Assembly: GCA_038210625.1 (NCBI GenBank)
Contig: JBBQWL010000041.1
Span: 1,584 to 65,583 of the forward strand
Direction: 5' to 3'
From: Chitinophagales bacterium
Lineage (GTDB): Bacteria; Bacteroidota; Bacteroidia; Chitinophagales; Chitinophagaceae
Length of the DNA stretch: 64,000 nt
The notes under the pieces are model-generated. The model saw only the letters and a list, made by a program, of their open reading frames with translations, did no database searches and was not told the origin of the DNA. This document shows, in pieces, positions 10,318 to 23,234 of this stretch. A program made the position numbers and the translations under genes. Each line of letters opens with the position of its first letter. Position 1 is the first letter of the stretch.

Positions 10318-10350
10318 GTACAAGAGTGCGACGCCAATGAGGCTAAATAG
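10318..10350 (+). repeat. Dispersed repeat core GTACAAGAGTGCGACGCCAATGA (copy 1)
   Basis: Near-identical to 20221-20244, 21642-21665 (minus) and 29555-29578. Confidence 0.85.
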
Positions 10351-10831: not shown

Positions 10832-10833
10832 GA

Positions 10834-10861
10834 GACAATAAGCAATAGTAAATAGGCAATA
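10834..10861 (+). repeat. Left heptamer arm (GACAATA AGCAATA GTAAATA GGCAATA) of the four-helix-bundle cassette
   Basis: Four 7-nt units ending AATA, abutting the ATG at 10862; inverted partner at 11221-11248. Confidence 0.9.
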
Positions 10862-11218
10862 ATGCTCAATCTGAATCATAAAAAGCTTAAGGCCTGGCAA
10901 CTTGCTATTCAGCTGTATAAAGAAGTATTATTGCTTGTAAGGAAATTACCTAAAGAAGAAATTTTCAATTTAACCTCACAAATAAAAAGAGCGGCGCTTT
11001 CTGTAAGTAATAATATTGCGGAAGGTGCAGCAAGAAAATCGTCTGCAGAAAGAAAAAGATTTTATGAAGTAGCACGTTCTTCAGACGTAGAAGTAGATAA
11101 TTGTTTTGAAGTAATTCTTACTGTTGAATATTTAAGCAAAGAGGATATACTAATAGCAGAAAACCTTGTGGAACAAATTTTCAAACTACTGTCAGCAATG
11201 ATTGATAACACGAAATGA
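10862..11218 (+). CDS. Four helix bundle protein (23S rRNA intervening-sequence protein / bAvd-like family)
   Basis: LKAWQLAIQLYKEV...LPKEEIFNLTSQIKRAALSVSNNIAEGAARKS..ERKRFYEVARSS..EV signature. Confidence 0.92.
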   Translation: MLNLNHKKLKAWQLAIQLYKEVLLLVRKLPKEEIFNLTSQIKRAALSVSNNIAEGAARKSSAERKRFYEVARSSDVEVDNCFEVILTVEYLSKEDILIAENLVEQIFKLLSAMIDNTK

Positions 11219-11220
11219 AT

Positions 11221-11248
11221 TATTGCTTATTTACTATTCCCTATTGCC
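11221..11248 (-). repeat. Right heptamer arm (TATTGCT TATTTAC TATTCCC TATTGCC)
   Basis: Matches the reverse complement of 10834-10861 at 24/28 positions; starts 2 nt after the TGA stop. Confidence 0.9.
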
Positions 11249-11261
11249 TTGATTTTACATT

Positions 11262-20022: not shown

Positions 20023-20035
20023 AAAATTTATTGGC

Positions 20036-20091
20036 GGGCTAAAGCCCTTTCGAATTTATTTTAATTTCTATCCCTGGCCTGAAGGCCAGGG
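20036..20091. repeat. Hairpin doublet GGGCTAAAGCCC ... CCCTGGCCTGAAGGCCAGGG
   Basis: Two GC-rich hairpins in an AT-rich spacer upstream of hbd. Confidence 0.55.
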
Positions 20092-20220
20092 CAACTCAAC
20101 AGACTTTATCAATTTAGCATGCCTATAATTGCACAGTGATCTTAAGCAAAAGCTCAAATTTTACTGGCAATCATAAAATAAAACTGCATCAAATTTAAAG
20201 AGCTCAATAAAGAACTAAAA

Positions 20221-20344
20221 GTAAAAGAGTGCGACGCCAATGAACCCAAATAGAATTAAAAATGCTTGGTCAATAAAATCATCAACACAATCTCCTAACC
20301 AATCTTCTTCATTTCCTCCCCGTTCGGGGGAGATAGAGGGGGCC
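20221..20344 (+). repeat. Left ~125-bp imperfect inverted repeat flanking gcdH
   Basis: Aligns by eye with the reverse complement of 21548-21665 from GTA(A/C)AAGAGTGCGACGCCAATGAA through AATGCTTG, AACCAATCT to GAGGGGGC. Confidence 0.8.
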
Positions 20345-20354
20345 AGGCAGGGGG

Positions 20355-21539
20355 CTACTTAAACGCATTCAACCCCGTAACATCCATCCCCGTAATCAAC
20401 AAATGAATATCGTGCGTGCCTTCATAGGTAATCACACTTTCCAAATTCATCATGTGACGCATCACCGGGTATTCGCCTGTAATGCCCATTCCGCCCAGCA
20501 TCTGGCGGGCGTCTCTTGCAATATTGGTAGCCACTTCGCAGGCATTTCTTTTAGCCATACTCACTTGTTGAGGAGTAACTTTTCCTTCATTCATCAATAC
20601 TCCTAAACGCCAGTTTAATAATTGCGCTTTGGTAATTTCTGTCACCATTTCGGCCAGTTTTTTTTGCTGCAATTGAAACCCACCGATCGGCCTGCCAAAC
20701 TGAATTCTTTCTTTACTATATTCCAATGCAATATAATAGCAATCCATGGCGGCGCCAATGGCACCCCAGGCAATACCATAGCGGGCTTTGGTTAAGCAAC
20801 CCAGCGGACCTTTCAATCCTTTTACATTGGGCAAAATATTTTCTTTCGGCACTTTTACATTGTCAAACACCAACTCGCCGGTAGCACTCGCACGCAAACT
20901 CCATTTGCCATGCGTGGTAGGCGTACTAAACCCTTCCATACCTCTTTCAACAATTACGCCCTGAATTTCATCTTTTTCATTTCGTGCCCACACCACCGCT
21001 ACCTGCGCAAAAGGCGCATTGCTGATCCACATTTTAGCACCATTTAAAATAACATGATGACCTGCATCTTTAATATTGGTGAGCATACTGCTGGGGTCGC
21101 TGCCATGATTAGGTTCTGTTAATCCAAAACAACCCAGCCACTCGCCGCTGGCCAATTTGGGTAAATATTTATGGCGCTGTTCTTCGCTGCCATATTGATA
21201 AATCGGGAACATCACCAAACTGCCTTGCACACTGGCAGTCGACCTTACGCCGCTATCGCCTCTCTCCAATTCCTGCATCATTAAACCATAACTAATATAA
21301 TCCAGGCCGCCGCCGCCGTATTGTTCCGGCACTGTCGGACCAAAGCAACCCATGTCTCCCAACTGTTTTACAATTTGTTGCGGAAACTCGGCACGTTGTG
21401 CGTAGTCTTCTATAATCGGGCTGATTTCTTTTTTTACATAGTTGCGTACACTTTCCCTTACCAACTTATGTTCTTCGGTCAATAATTCGTCAACGTTAAA
21501 ATAGTCCGGACTTTGAAAATTGTCTGTTTTAGCTGCCAT
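20355..21539 (-). CDS. gcdH: Acyl-CoA dehydrogenase, glutaryl-CoA dehydrogenase-like
   Basis: GCFGLTEPNHGSDP, GAKMWISNAP, SLRASATGEL, QFGRPIGGFQL, TYEGTHDIH. Confidence 0.85.
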   Translation of the reverse strand: MAAKTDNFQSPDYFNVDELLTEEHKLVRESVRNYVKKEISPIIEDYAQRAEFPQQIVKQLGDMGCFGPTVPEQYGGGGLDYISYGLMMQELERGDSGVRSTASVQGSLVMFPIYQYGSEEQRHKYLPKLASGEWLGCFGLTEPNHGSDPSSMLTNIKDAGHHVILNGAKMWISNAPFAQVAVVWARNEKDEIQGVIVERGMEGFSTPTTHGKWSLRASATGELVFDNVKVPKENILPNVKGLKGPLGCLTKARYGIAWGAIGAAMDCYYIALEYSKERIQFGRPIGGFQLQQKKLAEMVTEITKAQLLNWRLGVLMNEGKVTPQQVSMAKRNACEVATNIARDARQMLGGMGITGEYPVMRHMMNLESVITYEGTHDIHLLITGMDVTGLNAFK

Positions 21540-21547
21540 AAAAGAGA

Positions 21548-21665
21548 AGCCCCCTCAATCCCCCAAGGGGGAAGTAGCGGAGATTGGTTTTAAGATTATG
21601 TAATAGATTTATTGTAACAAGCATTAATACCTCTATTGAGCTTCATTGGCGTCGCACTCTTGTAC
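21548..21665 (-). repeat. Right ~120-bp imperfect inverted repeat flanking gcdH
   Basis: Partner of 20221-20344; includes C/G-rich hairpin CCCCCTCAATCCCCCAAGGGGG. Confidence 0.8.
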
Positions 21666-21698
21666 CACATTTCAATATTAATCTTTTACCGAAGCGTA

Positions 21699-21998
21699 GG
21701 ATGGAACGCTGATGACACGGATGCAACGGATTTGGACTGATTTTAAATCCGTTTTTAATCCGCCTTATCAGCGTTAACCGTGTGCTATCCTTCCCACCAC
21801 CTGATGGGAACACGGATGACACGGATGTAACGGATTTGCACTGATTTTAAATCCGTTTTTAATCCGTCTTATCAGCGTTATCCGTGTGCTATCCTTCCCA
21901 CCACCTGTTGGGAACACGGATGACACGGATGTAACGGATTTGCACTGATTTTAAATCCGTTTTTAATCCGCAAAATCAGCGTCATCCGTGTTCCATCC
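21699..21998. repeat. Tandem array, 104-bp period, ~2.9 copies, each unit an imperfect hairpin with 9-mer-periodic arms
   Basis: GGAAC unit starts at 21703, 21807, 21911; outer ends GGATGGAAC / GTTCCATCC inverted. Confidence 0.92.
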
Positions 21999-22004
21999 CT
22001 CGCA

Positions 22005-22012
22005 CAAAGATA
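22005..22012 (-). promoter_or_regulatory. Bacteroidota -7 box (TATCTTTG), candidate gcdH promoter
   Basis: Consensus TAnnTTTG match oriented toward gcdH, upstream of the tandem array. Confidence 0.55.
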
Positions 22013-22044
22013 ATATCAACCGCACAACAAAAATGGTTGTGTTT

Positions 22045-22052
22045 TACCTTTG
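22045..22052 (+). promoter_or_regulatory. Bacteroidota -7 box (TACCTTTG) upstream of the ECF sigma gene
   Basis: Consensus match about 50 nt before the TTG start. Confidence 0.5.
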
Positions 22053-22104
22053 ATGCAACATTGTTTAAATCACCTTGTCTCTATATTAATAAAACAATCT
22101 TTTT

Positions 22105-22656
22105 TTGGAACTGACGGTATCAATACATCGGGATGAACTGGTAGAACGCTGTAGAAAAGGCGAAGCGGCAGGCTATAAAAAACTGTACCAGCGCTACGCC
22201 AAAGCCATGTTCAACACCTGCCATAGAATTTTAAACAGCATTGACGAGGCAGAAGATGTGCTGCAGGAAAGTTTTACCGAAGCATTTAAAAATCTGCATG
22301 CCTTTGAATACCGCACCAGTTTTGGCGGCTGGCTAAAGCAAATCTGCGTTCACCGCAGTATTAACCAGCTAAAGAAAAGAAAGTTTAAATGGGAAGATAT
22401 TGAAGCAATCAATGTGTACAATATAGCAGACGAAACTTTTGTTGATGAAAACGAAATTACATTAAAGGTGGACCAGGTAAAAAACTCAATTATGGCGTTG
22501 CCGGACGGATACCGCACCGTATTGAGTTTGTATTTACTGGAAGGCTATGATCACCAGGAAATAGCGGAAATATTAAACGTAGCGGAATCAACCACCCGAA
22601 CGCAGTATATGCGGGCGAAACAAAAATTATTACAGGTTTTAAAAGAAGGAATATGA
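22105..22656 (+). CDS. ECF RNA polymerase sigma-70 factor
   Basis: EAEDVLQESFTEAF, SFGGWLKQICVHRSI, LPDGYRTVLSLYLLEGYDHQEIAEIL; TTG start. Confidence 0.92.
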   Translation: MELTVSIHRDELVERCRKGEAAGYKKLYQRYAKAMFNTCHRILNSIDEAEDVLQESFTEAFKNLHAFEYRTSFGGWLKQICVHRSINQLKKRKFKWEDIEAINVYNIADETFVDENEITLKVDQVKNSIMALPDGYRTVLSLYLLEGYDHQEIAEILNVAESTTRTQYMRAKQKLLQVLKEGI

Positions 22657-23234
22657 GCAGAAAGCTAGAAAAATTTATAGGCGATAACAGGAACGAATTT
22701 GATGACAAAATGCCGTCGGATAAAGTTTGGAAAAACATCGCATCATCGCTGGTTGAAAAACAACCCCAAAAAAGTATACTGACGCCACTCTTTAAATGGG
22801 CCATCGCGGCAGCAATAATTATTACAGCCGGACTAATTGTATTTTTTGTAACGAATACAAAGAAAGCAGCAGTAGATTTTGCGGGAACAAAAAAAGATTC
22901 TTCTACAGACATTATAGCCGCAGCTCCTGAATATACACCGGAAGTAAATGAATTTGCAAAACTGGTTTTGCTAAAACAGGAAGAATTAAAAGCATTGGCG
23001 CCCGAACACCCGGAGTTGTATCACCAGTTCACCACCGACATTAACCAATTGGATAGTTCGTATAAATCCCTGAAAGGCCAGATCAGCATTACACCCAACC
23101 GTGAAATGCTGATACAGGCGATGATTCAAAACCTGCAGCTGCAGCTGAATGTATTGAATCAGCAATTAAATATTATCAGTCAAATTAAACAATCAAAAAA
23201 AGATCACCATGAAAAAAGCACTCCAATTATTTAG
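22653..23234 (+). CDS. Putative anti-sigma factor / membrane-anchored coiled protein
   Basis: Overlaps the sigma stop (ATGA); N-terminal cytoplasmic segment, one TM (WAIAAAIIITAGLIVFFV), Gln/Leu-rich helical C-terminus. Confidence 0.65.
   Translation: MSRKLEKFIGDNRNEFDDKMPSDKVWKNIASSLVEKQPQKSILTPLFKWAIAAAIIITAGLIVFFVTNTKKAAVDFAGTKKDSSTDIIAAAPEYTPEVNEFAKLVLLKQEELKALAPEHPELYHQFTTDINQLDSSYKSLKGQISITPNREMLIQAMIQNLQLQLNVLNQQLNIISQIKQSKKDHHEKSTPII

Follow-up and report, generated by a model that had tools for sequence, protein, structure and literature searches.

In a Chitinophagaceae bacterium of soil or sediment origin, the tandem array located upstream of a gcdH-like gene probably consists of three inverted-arm modules without cargo. 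In its full form, such a module is a mini-cassette with one small gene for a PD-(D/E)XK nuclease (GxxExxY, TIGR04256). Each arm of the module is built from three or four copies of the core (C)ACGGAT in 9-nt phase, with the two arms inverted relative to each other and ending in GAAC...GTTC termini. The array was studied within the whole 64-kb stretch of DNA that was analysed, here called the window, and was compared with loci of similar design in other genomes and metagenomes.

Organization of the array

An earlier reading of this region, made from the sequence only, had described a 104-bp unit in about 2.9 copies, and this description was confirmed by three approaches. TRF reported an array at 21703-22005 with a period of 104, 2.9 copies (as assembled), 91% matches and a score of 501; a repeat search of the array identified three copies with a spacing of 104 nt and identities of 100, 93 and 81%; and an alignment of the three units gave a mean column identity of 93%. 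The 9-mer periodicity of the arms was likewise recovered, with (C)ACGGAT recurring each 9 nt and with nested period-9 rows (ACACGGATG, 2.9 copies) reported by TRF at 21810-21835 and 21914-21939. No further copies of the unit were found elsewhere in the window. The features of the array and its surroundings are listed in Table 1.

Table 1. Location of the array, its parts and other features discussed in the text (window coordinates).
Feature	Coordinates	Strand	Remarks
Four-helix-bundle gene (TIGR02436) between heptamer arms	10833-11249
Acyl-CoA (glutaryl-CoA-type) dehydrogenase gene, gcdH-like	20355-21539	-	Putative 5' leader of ~460 nt would include the array
Conserved leader module of ~125 nt, GTACAAGAGTGCGACGCCAATGAAGCT...CCCCCTTGGGGGATTGAGGGGG	21540-21665	-	Between array and gcdH ATG
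Whole array	21694-22003	.	Three head-to-tail palindromic units plus outer inverted termini GCGTAGGATGGAAC / GTTCCATCCCTCGC
Unit 1, hairpin body	21703-21783	.	DNA fold -19.2 kcal/mol, z -4.6
Linker, units 1/2	21784-21806	.	Right-terminus-like part, then left-terminus-like part; holds TTCCCA-N8-TGGGAA (21791-21810)
Unit 2, hairpin body	21807-21887	.	DNA fold -21.5 kcal/mol, z -5.3
Linker, units 2/3	21888-21910	.	Identical to first linker except for one A/T difference; junction palindrome 21895-21914
Unit 3, hairpin body	21911-21994	.	Termini complete (GGAAC...GTTCC); DNA fold -23.3 kcal/mol, z -5.0
Bacteroidota-type -7 box TATCTTTG, putative gcdH promoter	22005-22012	-	6 nt ahead of array outer terminus GGATGGAAC
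-7 box-like TACCTTTG, divergent partner promoter toward ECF sigma gene	22045-22052	+	Array outside that transcript
ECF-type sigma-70 factor gene, divergent neighbour	22105-22656	+

The arms of the units are 27-30 nt long, with a complementarity of 78-83%. The left arm of unit 1 reads GGAAC GCTGAT gac ACGGAT gca ACGGAT and its right arm ATCCGT..ATCCGC..ATCAGC..AACCGTGT, while in unit 2 the left arm, GGAAC ACGGAT gac ACGGAT gta ACGGAT, is separated by a loop of 11 nt from a right arm with four ATCCGT-like cores that ends in ATCCGTGT. An inner hairpin, AACGGATTT/AAATCCGTT, has perfect 9/9 pairing. Folded as single-stranded DNA, each unit reached -19 to -23 kcal/mol (z = -4.4 to -5.3), and none of 200 shuffled sequences folded as well. 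A second hairpin had been proposed at each junction between the units. The palindrome TTCCCA-N8-TGGGAA is indeed present in both linkers, but it folds weakly on its own (z = -2.5) and is most simply explained as a by-product of two abutting inverted termini. The outer ends are inverted, as had been noted (GGATGGAAC, 21699-21707, versus GTTCCATCC, 21990-21998), and the repeat extends further, to 21694-21707 on the left side and 21990-22003 on the right side.

A family of periodic inverted arms and its nuclease gene

GTDB genomes were scanned with the pattern ACGGAT-N3-ACGGAT-N3-ACGGAT, which matched at least 120 loci in more than 15 phyla. Among the matches listed are loci from Verrucomicrobiota, Planctomycetota, Acidobacteriota, Cyanobacteria, Bacteroidota, Chloroflexota and Spirochaetota, and also from Methanoperedens. 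An inverted partner arm was identified within 150 nt at 53 of the 120 listed loci, these cargo-less members being the majority of the family and the array representing the same empty form, and within 1 kb at 10 more (63 together). Each 9-nt period has a conserved core of 6-7 nt and 2-3 free positions, and the outer four bases beyond the arms (GAAC/AACC types) are complementary at 83% of positions in 78 arm pairs from genome and metagenome loci. Tandem amplification was also observed elsewhere in the family, with periods of 95 nt (at least 1.9 copies, L099), 159 nt (3.1 copies, L049) and 36 nt (7.1 copies, L187), and as three copies at a spacing of 82 nt (L096).

Membership of the family was judged by at least three (C)ACGGAT-type cores in exact 9-nt phase, an inverted partner arm and complementary termini (GAAC...GTTC, or GACC/AACC...GGTC/GGTT), and for the full form by a GxxExxY gene between the arms. 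Three ACGGAT cores in phase are present in units 2 and 3 (21812/21821/21830 and 21916/21925/21934), and unit 1 has GCTGAT followed by two ACGGAT. The right arms carry ATCCGT, ATCCGC/ATCCGT, ATCAGC and ATCCGT, and the termini pair as GGAAC (21911-21915) and GTTCC (21990-21994). The space between the arms is a loop of 11 nt with no GxxExxY cargo, and a phmmer search found no GxxExxY gene in the window.

The sequence-only reading had stated that 9-mer arms of the ACGGAT/ACAGAT type flank GxxExxY genes, and this association was recovered in both directions. Starting from the arms, GxxExxY ORFs were found to be enclosed by or to abut ACGGAT arms at L118, L029, L095 and L105, and the arms that bracket them have the same GAAC...GTTC termini. 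Starting from the genes, 52 of 80 metagenome loci encoding GxxExxY relatives have ACGGAT or ATCCGT within 160 nt of the gene, as compared to a chance expectation of about 0.08 occurrences per flank. After clustering of the GxxExxY proteins at 90% identity, 9-nt-periodic inverted arms were seen in at least 21 of 27 clusters, with the cores ACGGAT, ACAGAT, ACGAAT, ACGGAA, GCAGAT or ACAGAA. Cargo-less hairpins adjoin full cassettes at L133, L154 and L192, and at L095 a complete empty hairpin comes after a truncated gene and has the same left arm. The proposed kinship of the array to inverted-arm cassettes is supported, with the unit as a gene-less relative.

The GxxExxY alignment retains D68 and E78-x-K80, and the AF2 model (pLDDT 94.6) is most similar in fold to Cas4, lambda exonuclease, RecE and AdnAB in the PDB (TM 0.56-0.61); a sequence search of the PDB with the GxxExxY profile gave no match. 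Proteins that are 50-80% identical differ in the core hexamer, while others that are only 31-36% identical both have ACGGAT, a comparison that is qualitative since the automated typing of cores against protein identity is crude. That the core type does not track protein relatedness speaks against a scheme as simple as each nuclease recognizing its own arms. About 73% of the GxxExxY cassettes are co-directional with their neighbours, which is close to the usual share for neighbouring genes in bacteria and hence uninformative. In viral contigs, at least 120 matches to the pattern were obtained, of which 69 of the 120 listed are located in long ORFs (coding repeats), and GxxExxY is encoded at none of those loci; the viral matches thus make no case for a phage vector.

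Conservation in the family concerns the motif. The complementarity of the spacers between the cores was 33, 34 and 48%, as compared to 32, 32 and 42% expected from composition, and the core changes across the family were one-sided (uncompensated) in 53 cases and compensatory in 1; these arm-pair statistics include only arms with at least two exact cores, which inflates core conservation. Given the chance-level pairing of the spacers and the uncompensated core changes, it is the repeated motif that is conserved and not the stem. The nested hairpins of the sequence-only reading are therefore adequate as a description of the fold, but across the family the stems show no more constraint on pairing than the shared motif entails. 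A unit can fold as a hairpin because its arms are inverted copies of one motif array. Since the motif is conserved and the base pairs are not, the arms most likely act as iterated sites that a sequence-specific factor recognizes, by analogy with the reiterated binding sites at transposon or recombination ends. Two other functions were considered and set aside. For an RNA-splicing endonuclease, suggested by internal loops between 6-bp helices that resemble a bulge-helix-bulge, the EndA folds gave weak matches (TM about 0.35, probability about 0.5) as compared to TM 0.56-0.61 for Cas4 and lambda exonuclease, and the likeness of CACGGATG to a CsrA site or a DnaA box is partial, with elements occurring in phyla where such readings make no sense.

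The gcdH leader, related strains and alternative explanations

The motif TAnnTTTG oriented to gcdH occurs once in the 565-bp intergenic region, as TATCTTTG, and this -7 box is kept as TAT[CA]TTTGC at the orthologous loci L124-L127 and L328-L331. As had been claimed, it faces gcdH through the array, and the array would accordingly occupy the first ~300 nt of the gcdH transcript, within its 5' leader. The conserved module between the array and the start codon is a separate dispersed repeat outside the array. No intrinsic-terminator-like site was found inside the array, and an Rfam search over 21000-22700 at permissive E-values gave nothing relevant, the best model over the array being a plant miRNA at 23.5 bits versus a gathering threshold of 249.

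We compared the gcdH leaders of relatives with a gcdH of 94-97% identity, all of which keep the -7 box. A single degenerate unit is present in L125 and a possible remnant of a unit in L331, other palindromes are found instead in L124, L329 and L328, and L126, L330 and L127 have no element. The copy number at the orthologous site thus varies between 0, 1 and 3 units, or a different palindrome takes its place. The idea that the GGAAC termini mark an ECF promoter next to the ECF sigma gene was discarded, since in L125 the element is present and that neighbour is not.

Alternatively, the array could regulate gcdH as a structured 5' leader, through mRNA-stabilizing 5' stem-loops, an RNase III processing site or a signal-dependent masking or exposure of the downstream conserved leader. 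Such a role would fit the placement of the array ahead of the gcdH ATG, 6 nt past the conserved -7 box, the high predicted stability of the leader RNA (-171.6 kcal/mol, z -8.2), the lack of a terminator-like site and the single unit at an equivalent relative position in L125, and promoter-near heptamer repeats altered reporter output in Nostoc (bioRxiv 10.1101/2022.06.06.494920). However, L126, L330 and L127 lack any element and L124 and L329 have unrelated palindromes, although their gcdH is 94-96% identical and the promoter is shared; the array has no Rfam match, compensatory pairing is absent across the arm family, and the family members reside in varied intergenic contexts beside unrelated housekeeping genes. 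Since L126 and L330 retain gcdH and its promoter without the array, the array is not an essential element of the leader; we consider a regulatory leader, and with it the suggested co-option, rather improbable. Far less probable still, and already largely refuted, is a chance or neutral local duplication of an AT-rich intergenic palindrome unrelated to any family, or an assembly artefact, although the short-read contigs end within the array and the unit is found at this one site in the window. All three unit variants were recovered in Logan short-read contigs from independent runs, as were both junction variants, CCTGATGGGAA and CCTGTTGGGAA, in exact-matching contigs, which excludes an error in one particular assembly as the origin of the repeat. 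Also, the units fold better than all shuffles, and their motif, phase, termini and inverted layout are shared with hundreds of loci elsewhere. Weighing against the main reading, the window lacks a GxxExxY gene, and the source metagenomes contain few near-identical copies of this unit, with the array at 2-5x the baseline depth.

Another explanation assigns the units to a homing system, as its landing pads or empty sites. In this system the Cas4/RecB-like GxxExxY nuclease would cut or resect at arm arrays, and homology-directed repair would copy the filled cassette into empty arm pairs, the array being a cluster of target sites. The empty and filled forms are often adjacent and have arms and termini in common, the folds most similar to that of the nuclease are those of recombination exonucleases and Cas4, genes and core types look shuffled relative to each other, and the arrangement at L095 would also be accounted for. 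On the other hand, the arms (27-36 nt) are short for homologous repair and the window has no GxxExxY gene, and we view homing as doubtful. A wider proposal, which we regard as speculative and unlikely, is that the 9-mer arms are the cis-acting ends of unrecognized pan-bacterial (and archaeal) mini-cassettes, the sole gene of which encodes a Cas4/RecB-like PD-(D/E)XK nuclease of ~120 aa. These would spread when the nuclease initiates recombination or homing into arm pairs without a gene, such as the three in the window, with the long-known STRR/heptamer repeats and Avd-like four-helix-bundle genes as a sister system. If so, a new kind of mobile element would have its empty target or donor sites clustered in the array.

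For the preferred reading of three cargo-less modules, we propose that one module, gene-less originally or after loss of its gene, came to sit just downstream of the gcdH promoter, where unequal recombination or slippage, both favoured by 9-mer arrays and abutting inverted termini, increased it to three units. Because the two linkers are nearly identical, the units derive from local duplication rather than from three insertions, and the array itself is no evidence of transposition. The evidence that bears on the suggested mobility, as a non-autonomous element, is the variation in presence and copy number among relatives, with no target-site duplication visible flanking the array ends (21694-21707 and 21990-22003). 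The array would be tolerated in the gcdH leader, or at most modulate mRNA stability or translation, rather than act as a dedicated regulator.

Short-period intergenic repeats such as STRR and TAACTGA have been catalogued since 1990, to our knowledge without a mechanism, and genes for GxxExxY and four-helix-bundle proteins rank with the most common small genes that lack an explanation in Bacteroidota, Cyanobacteria, Planctomycetota and Verrucomicrobiota. The present results join such repeats and genes in one architecture, with a single small gene between inverted periodic arms and many empty arm pairs besides. Binding or cutting of the arms by the nuclease or the Avd-like protein, movement of cassettes between arm pairs and the effect of arm arrays on host transcripts can now be tested. 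In practice, such arrays break short-read assemblies and inflate ORF calls (as in N-terminally extended gcdH models of 406-480 aa), and arrays in the leaders of metabolic genes may alter expression between near-identical strains.

Comparison with known systems

The array is not a CRISPR array, since its 104-bp units follow each other directly, with 81-93% identity along the full length and no unique spacers, and it is not a 23S rRNA intervening sequence (IVS), since it lies between two protein-coding genes. Integron cassettes resemble the arm family in that a single small gene is tightly bracketed by an imperfect palindromic site, in that cassettes occur within host operons and in the existence of gene-less sites. 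However, attC is one 3' site with R''/L''/L'/R' boxes, a GTTRRRY core and a dedicated integrase, IntI, whereas the arm family has two inverted periodic arms; these arms have no GTTRRRY/RYYYAAC core, and no integrase was seen among the neighbours of the 120 listed loci. REP/BIME elements and MITEs (Correia, RUP, ERIC) are likewise small, gene-less, imperfect intergenic palindromes, sometimes clustered and often co-transcribed with their neighbours. In contrast to these, the units have no GTAG-type head, no RAYT (TnpA_REP) was seen among the neighbouring ORFs of the 120 listed loci, and the internal 9-nt periodicity of the array is not known as a feature of REP/BIME or MITEs. Of the hallmarks of MITEs, terminal inverted repeats are present and a flanking direct duplication is absent, and the gene-bearing relative encodes a 120-aa PD-(D/E)XK nuclease rather than any known transposase.

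No published description of the periodic arms was found in the literature on GxxExxY, PDDEXK_3/PF13366/TIGR04256, TIGR02436, IVS proteins with repeats and the arm motif, one search with the motif returning only primer noise. The closest published analogues of the arm family are the STRR sequences and the TAACTGA heptamer repeats. The former were reportedly described from heterocystous cyanobacteria by Mazel et al. in 1990. The latter are known from Beggiatoaceae, Cyanobacteria and Bacteroidetes (PMC4679880; bioRxiv 10.1101/2022.06.06.494920). Both are short-period intergenic tandem repeats that often end at a start codon and have a patchy cross-phylum distribution suggestive of horizontal transfer, and for both the function is unknown and a binding factor has been postulated. 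They were, however, published as direct heptamer arrays and not as inverted arm pairs around cargo, and they have neither the 9-nt phase nor the ACGGAT core; with its period of 9 rather than a 7-nt tandem unit, the array resembles them in kind without being a member.

Four-helix-bundle cassettes (TIGR02436/PF05635, annotated as "23S rRNA intervening-sequence protein", Avd-like) follow the same plan, with the stop codon of the upstream gene, a periodic arm, the ATG...stop of a ~118-aa gene and an inverted periodic arm. The analogy to a heptamer cassette that had been drawn for the array is supported by the window itself, which contains such a gene between heptamer arms (Table 1), and one more such cassette occurs in L125 beside gcdH, and a decayed one in L127. 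The differences are a period of 7 instead of 9, motifs that are unlike those of the array and vary from case to case, and another cargo family. The GxxExxY cassettes share with the array the (C)ACGGAT core, the 9-nt phase, the GAAC...GTTC termini, the inverted layout, the tight intergenic placement and the tendency to tandem amplification, while the window units differ from them in having an 11-nt loop in place of a gene of ~370 nt, four degenerate cores in the right arm and longer outer termini (GGATGGAAC).

The array and its place upstream of gcdH

The array lies in a divergent intergenic region of 565 bp, between gcdH and an ECF sigma factor gene (see table). The tandem repetition claimed in the sequence-only reading was borne out by TRF, which reported a 104-bp unit x 2.9 at 21703-22005 (91% matches, score 501) with nested period-9 arrays of ACACGGATG x 2.9. 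A repeat search recovered three copies at an exact spacing of 104 nt, with 100, 93 and 81% identity to the first copy, inverted arms of 27-30 nt with a complementarity of 78-83%, and a perfect 9/9 inner hairpin, AACGGATTT/AAATCCGTT, in all units. Folded as single-stranded DNA, the units reached -19 to -23 kcal/mol each (z -4.4 to -5.3), and none of 200 dinucleotide shuffles folded as well. The outer inverted ends originally quoted, GGATGGAAC (21699) and GTTCCATCC (21990), were confirmed and are longer, namely GCGTAGGATGGAAC (21694-21707) and GTTCCATCCCTCGC (21990-22003). The second hairpin proposed for each unit junction, TTCCCA-N8-TGGGAA, is present as a palindrome but folds weakly (z -2.5), and is the expected product of abutting right and left termini of inverted-repeat elements. 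No further copies of the unit were found elsewhere within the 64-kb window, and a search of Rfam with the array gave no match.

The two linkers differ from each other at one base, as compared to about seven differing positions in the hairpin bodies, which indicates that the units arose by local duplication of hairpin plus linker and not by three insertions. Logan short-read contigs of independent runs end within the array, as repeats are expected to cause, and exact-matching contigs cover the stretches given in the table for the three units and two junctions. The independent data thus contain three distinct unit variants and two distinct junctions, which speaks against the repeat being an artefact of one assembly.

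Only two TAnnTTTG boxes were found in the 565-bp region, back to back. Over the whole window this motif occurs about as often as chance predicts (90 found, 92 expected); the -7 box reading draws its strength from conservation, as all orthologous loci examined have kept TAT[CA]TTTGC upstream of gcdH. Transcription from this box would make the array the first ~300 nt of a ~460-nt gcdH leader; no terminator-like site was found inside the array.

Immediately 5' of the gcdH start codon is a GC-rich, terminator-like hairpin with a T-rich run after it (CCCCCTTGGGGGATTGAGGGGG CTTCTCTTTT), which may act as an attenuator or stabiliser and belongs to a module of ~125 nt (GTAmAAGAGTGCGACGCCAATGAAsCyCAAATAG ... 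AATGCTTG ... AACCAATCT ... CCCCCTTGGGGGATTGAGGGGG). Two inverted copies of this module exactly flank the gcdH ORF and end at its ATG and its stop codon, respectively. A 20-nt core recurs ~60 nt upstream of what is, judged by its first residues, probably an FKBP/SlyD-type gene, and a 33-nt core reached a depth of 100-1000x in metagenome contigs, where the baseline is ~10. Upstream of gcdH, the module is conserved in the orthologous loci L124 and L126 and split by a hairpin in L125. It gave no match in an Rfam search and may be a dispersed leader or sRNA-like motif of the Chitinophagaceae, not previously known.

Features of the window and of loci from other genomes, metagenomes and viral contigs (L-numbers)
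Feature	Position	Strand	Remark
Four-helix-bundle gene	10862-11218		TIGR02436 "four helix bundle protein" (Avd-like), 118 aa, 92 bits
Heptamer-periodic inverted arms of that gene	10833-10863 and 11219-11249		31 nt, 87% complementary
~125-nt module, 20-nt core	10322-10341	plus
~125-nt module, copy	20236-20354	plus
~125-nt module, copy	21540-21665	minus
Terminator-like hairpin	21550-21571	minus
gcdH	20355-21539	minus	acyl-CoA (glutaryl-CoA-type) dehydrogenase, one side of array
ECF sigma factor gene	22105-22656	plus	other side of array
-7 box TATCTTTG	22005-22012	minus	directed through array at gcdH
Box TACCTTTG	22045-22052	plus	directed at sigma gene
Unit 1	21634-21771		exact Logan contig
Unit 1/2 junction with CCTGATGGGAA	21792-21866		exact Logan contig
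Unit-2-specific right arm	21837-21897		exact Logan contig
Unit 2/3 junction with CCTGTTGGGAA	21840-21970		exact Logan contig
Unit 3			exact Logan contigs L002, L003
gcdH-hbd spacer, window	20023-20354		332 nt, includes inverted copy of ~125-nt module
gcdH-hbd spacer	L125:3686-4126		four-helix-bundle cassette, TTATGAG arms
gcdH-hbd spacer	L127:3671-3780		decayed remnant of the L125 cassette
gcdH-hbd spacer	L126:3686-3728		43 nt only
Tandem hairpins	L099 (Cytophagales)		GGAAC...GTTC head to tail, 95-nt period, at least 1.9 copies, runs off contig end
Tandem array	L049 (Leptospirales)		159 nt x 3.1
Tandem copies	L096 (Dulcicalothrix)		three, 82-nt spacing
Tandem arms	L187		seven left arms, 36-nt (4 x 9) period, then one right arm
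Tandem arms	L160		three left arms, 36-nt period
PDDEXK_3 gene	L118 (Muribaculaceae)		exactly enclosed by two arms
PDDEXK_3 gene	L029 (Verrucomicrobiae)		exactly enclosed by two arms
PDDEXK_3 gene	L095		truncated, between left arm and complete empty hairpin
PDDEXK_3 gene	L105		between two hairpins
gcdH leader	L125		one degenerate unit of the array type (GGGATAGAAC ACTGAT... ...GTTCCATC)
gcdH leader	L331		short GGGAC-ACGGATGG piece, possibly remnant
gcdH leader	L329		different periodic palindrome, CTGGAT type
gcdH leader	L328		other hairpins
gcdH leader	L124		CCCCGACAGCGG-type palindrome, upstream of -7 box
gcdH leader	L126, L330, L127		nothing comparable

ACGGAT arms and GxxExxY genes

We scanned one genome per GTDB species (a 596-Gb collection) for ACGGAT-N3-ACGGAT-N3-ACGGAT and obtained at least 120 loci, as compared to roughly 17 expected by chance in the whole collection by our own estimate. 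The matches listed were from Verrucomicrobiota, Planctomycetota, Acidobacteriota, Cyanobacteria, Bacteroidota, Chloroflexota, Spirochaetota, Armatimonadota, Nitrospirota, Gemmatimonadota, Desulfobacterota and Bacillota, and from the archaeal Methanoperedens, Methanosarcinales and Thermoplasmatota. An inverted partner arm was located within 150 nt in 53 of the 120 loci listed and at 151-1000 nt in 10, while 38 had a single arm alone and the other 19 fall inside long open frames, probably as coding repeats. The order of parts does not vary: a first terminus, (ACGGATnnn)x3-4, a loop, (nnnATCCGT)x3-4 and the complement of the first terminus. Bacteroidota, among others, have GAAC as the first terminus; Acidobacteriota and the PVC group have AACC or GACC. 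Over 78 arm pairs from genome and metagenome loci, the 4-nt stretches just outside the arms were complementary at 83% of positions. The array units, GGAAC-(ACGGATnnn)3...ATCCGT-GTTCC, fit this layout exactly, and tandem amplification is likewise a trait of the family. In two viral contigs (L230, L241), ATCCGT arms adjoin arms with another 9-nt-periodic core (TCTCTGCGT / CTCTGCGGT), and different core types can therefore be adjacent or nested.

The association of ACGGAT/ACAGAT 9-mer arms with GxxExxY genes, suggested in the sequence-only reading, was confirmed in both directions, from arm loci to the gene and from gene clusters to the arms. A Pfam scan of 89 ORFs beside the motif in the listed loci identified mostly unrelated housekeeping families; PDDEXK_3 alone was represented by three members, and the number of its loci rose to four with a local profile search. 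The L118 protein scored 134 bits against TIGR04256, "GxxExxY protein" (cutoff 35). Conversely, among 80 metagenome loci encoding relatives of the arm-linked proteins, ACGGAT/ATCCGT was present within 160 nt of the gene in 52 and at least twice on both sides in 27; these loci are redundant (at 90% identity, the 81 proteins form 27 clusters), and most of the ACGGAT arms come from a single cluster of 50 members. Arms with a 9-nt period were found in at least 21 of the 27 clusters, with the cores ACGGAT, ACAGAT, ACGAAT, ACGGAA, GCAGAT and ACAGAA, mostly single transitions apart. It is thus normal for GxxExxY genes to lie between such inverted arms, whose widespread cores include ACGGAT.

In a typical cassette, the upstream gene's stop codon is followed by (a)aCGAAC ACGGATtta ACGGATaac ACGGAT, the GxxExxY gene (ATG...TAA) and ATCCGTtca ATCCGAgtc ATCCGT GGTC. 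Empty hairpins with the same arms adjoin full cassettes in L133, L154 and L192. A recurrent module of ~140 nt (gatgataagtt...ttggaagcatcttgaaaacaagctttcagagtgcttc...aacctttg...caaagcaatct...gattgtcatc) was often seen between arm and gene or beside cassettes in rumen and gut Bacteroidales contigs (L129, L143, L153, L154, L160, L180, L187, L188, L192, L203).

An alignment of 32 GxxExxY proteins showed that G-F-x-E-x-x-Y and the PD-(D/E)XK catalytic residues D68 and E78-x-K80 are kept. A confident AlphaFold2 model (pLDDT 94.6, pTM 0.87) had its best PDB fold match in Cas4 SSO0001 (4ic1; E 4e-4, TM 0.59-0.61), with lambda exonuclease, LHK-Exo, RecE and the AdnAB nuclease domain among the other best folds and weak matches to tRNA-splicing endonucleases and Hjc. 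The model points to a minimal RecB/Cas4-like DNA nuclease. In a previous survey, PDDEXK_3 was listed as a family of unknown function that has been transferred between phyla multiple times (Steczkiewicz et al., PMC3424549).

The stem of the family consists of 6-bp helices separated by 3x3 mismatches. Across 74 distinct ACGGAT arm pairs, the spacer positions between cores were complementary in 33%, 34% and 48%, against 32%, 32% and 42% from base composition, and core pairs departing from ACGGAT comprised 53 one-sided, two two-sided uncompensated and one compensatory case. The sample was conditioned on at least two exact cores per arm, which inflates core conservation and leaves the absence of spacer pairing and compensation unaffected. 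A structure selected as RNA or DNA does not fit spacers that pair at composition level and core changes that are uncompensated; the stem results from the two arms having the same motif array, one inverted relative to the other. The pattern fits arms that would serve as repeated sites recognised by a sequence-specific factor, one set at each end of the module. The lack of correspondence between core type and protein relatedness argues against a simple scheme of one nuclease recognising the arms of its own cassette: GxxExxY proteins of 50-80% identity often have different cores, while those of L118, L029 and L095 are only 31-36% identical, yet all have ACGGAT.

Turnover at the gcdH site

The nearest relatives of the gcdH protein (92-97% amino acid identity) are from Chitinophagaceae and Ferruginibacter MAGs, and the locus was found in metagenomes from soil, sediment and rhizosphere. 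We compared the region downstream of the conserved -7 box in eight loci with gcdH 94-97% identical to that of the window. The ACGGAT module is present in 0, 1 or 3 copies at this site, and the single L125 unit ends ~40 nt before a conserved GTACAAGAGTG motif, with the same spacing in the window. The differences among leaders show that palindromic modules come and go at this site while the proteins diverge by a few percent.

A second hotspot is the gcdH-hbd spacer. A tiny GC-rich palindrome (CCTGCCTGCCGGCAGGCAGG-like) was inserted inside an ACGGAT arm in a Chitinophagaceae MAG (L097:5190-5560), with similar palindromes in the gcdH leader of L331 (L331:1-255); apparently, tiny palindromes insert into other repeats in a nested fashion. 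Public gcdH gene calls are N-terminally extended in six relatives (P0004, P0006, P0014, P0020, P0030, P0049; 406-480 aa, as compared to 394), an annotation artefact of palindromic leaders in which stop-free upstream repeat DNA was read as coding.

The best-supported interpretation is that the array represents three gene-less arm modules of the GxxExxY-cassette family, locally amplified and riding passively in the gcdH leader. Close relatives manage without the array, which makes it unlikely to be a dedicated regulator; it could plausibly have a side effect on mRNA stability or translation. For the arm modules, spread by recombination or homing is the most attractive hypothesis, since empty arm pairs coexist with filled ones and the encoded protein has a nuclease fold. 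The array itself is a modest instance, and the family exposed through it is of real interest.

Heptamer cassettes and known repeats

The suggested analogy to a heptamer cassette has its counterpart in the window itself, where a TIGR02436 gene is located between heptamer inverted arms, one abutting the ATG and the other the stop codon. This cassette (10833-11249; arms CAATAAG CAATAGT AAATAGG CAATAAT and complement) is intact and directly follows the upstream gene's stop. Elsewhere in the fetched loci, four-helix-bundle genes are flanked by heptamer or hexamer arms with different motifs again. Cargo family and period go together, the arms of GxxExxY genes having a period of 9 and those of four-helix-bundle genes one of 7, and the two cases indicate that periodic inverted arms around one small gene are a general architecture.

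A literature search found no description of 9-nt-periodic arms of GxxExxY cassettes. REP/BIME, attC, CRISPR and IVS were considered as identities for the array, and each fails on a defining feature. In comparison with a MITE, the array has inverted outer ends, but no target-site duplication was seen. The nearest published parallels to the arm repeats are the STRR heptamers of cyanobacteria and the TAACTGA heptamer repeats. TAACTGA repeats, often ending at a start codon, have a patchy cross-phylum distribution in Beggiatoaceae, Cyanobacteria and Bacteroidetes, with "no mechanism evident" (PMC4679880), and heptamer repeats near Nostoc promoters altered reporter output by an unknown route (bioRxiv 10.1101/2022.06.06.494920). 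The array belongs to a known kind, small intergenic palindromic or short-period repeats.
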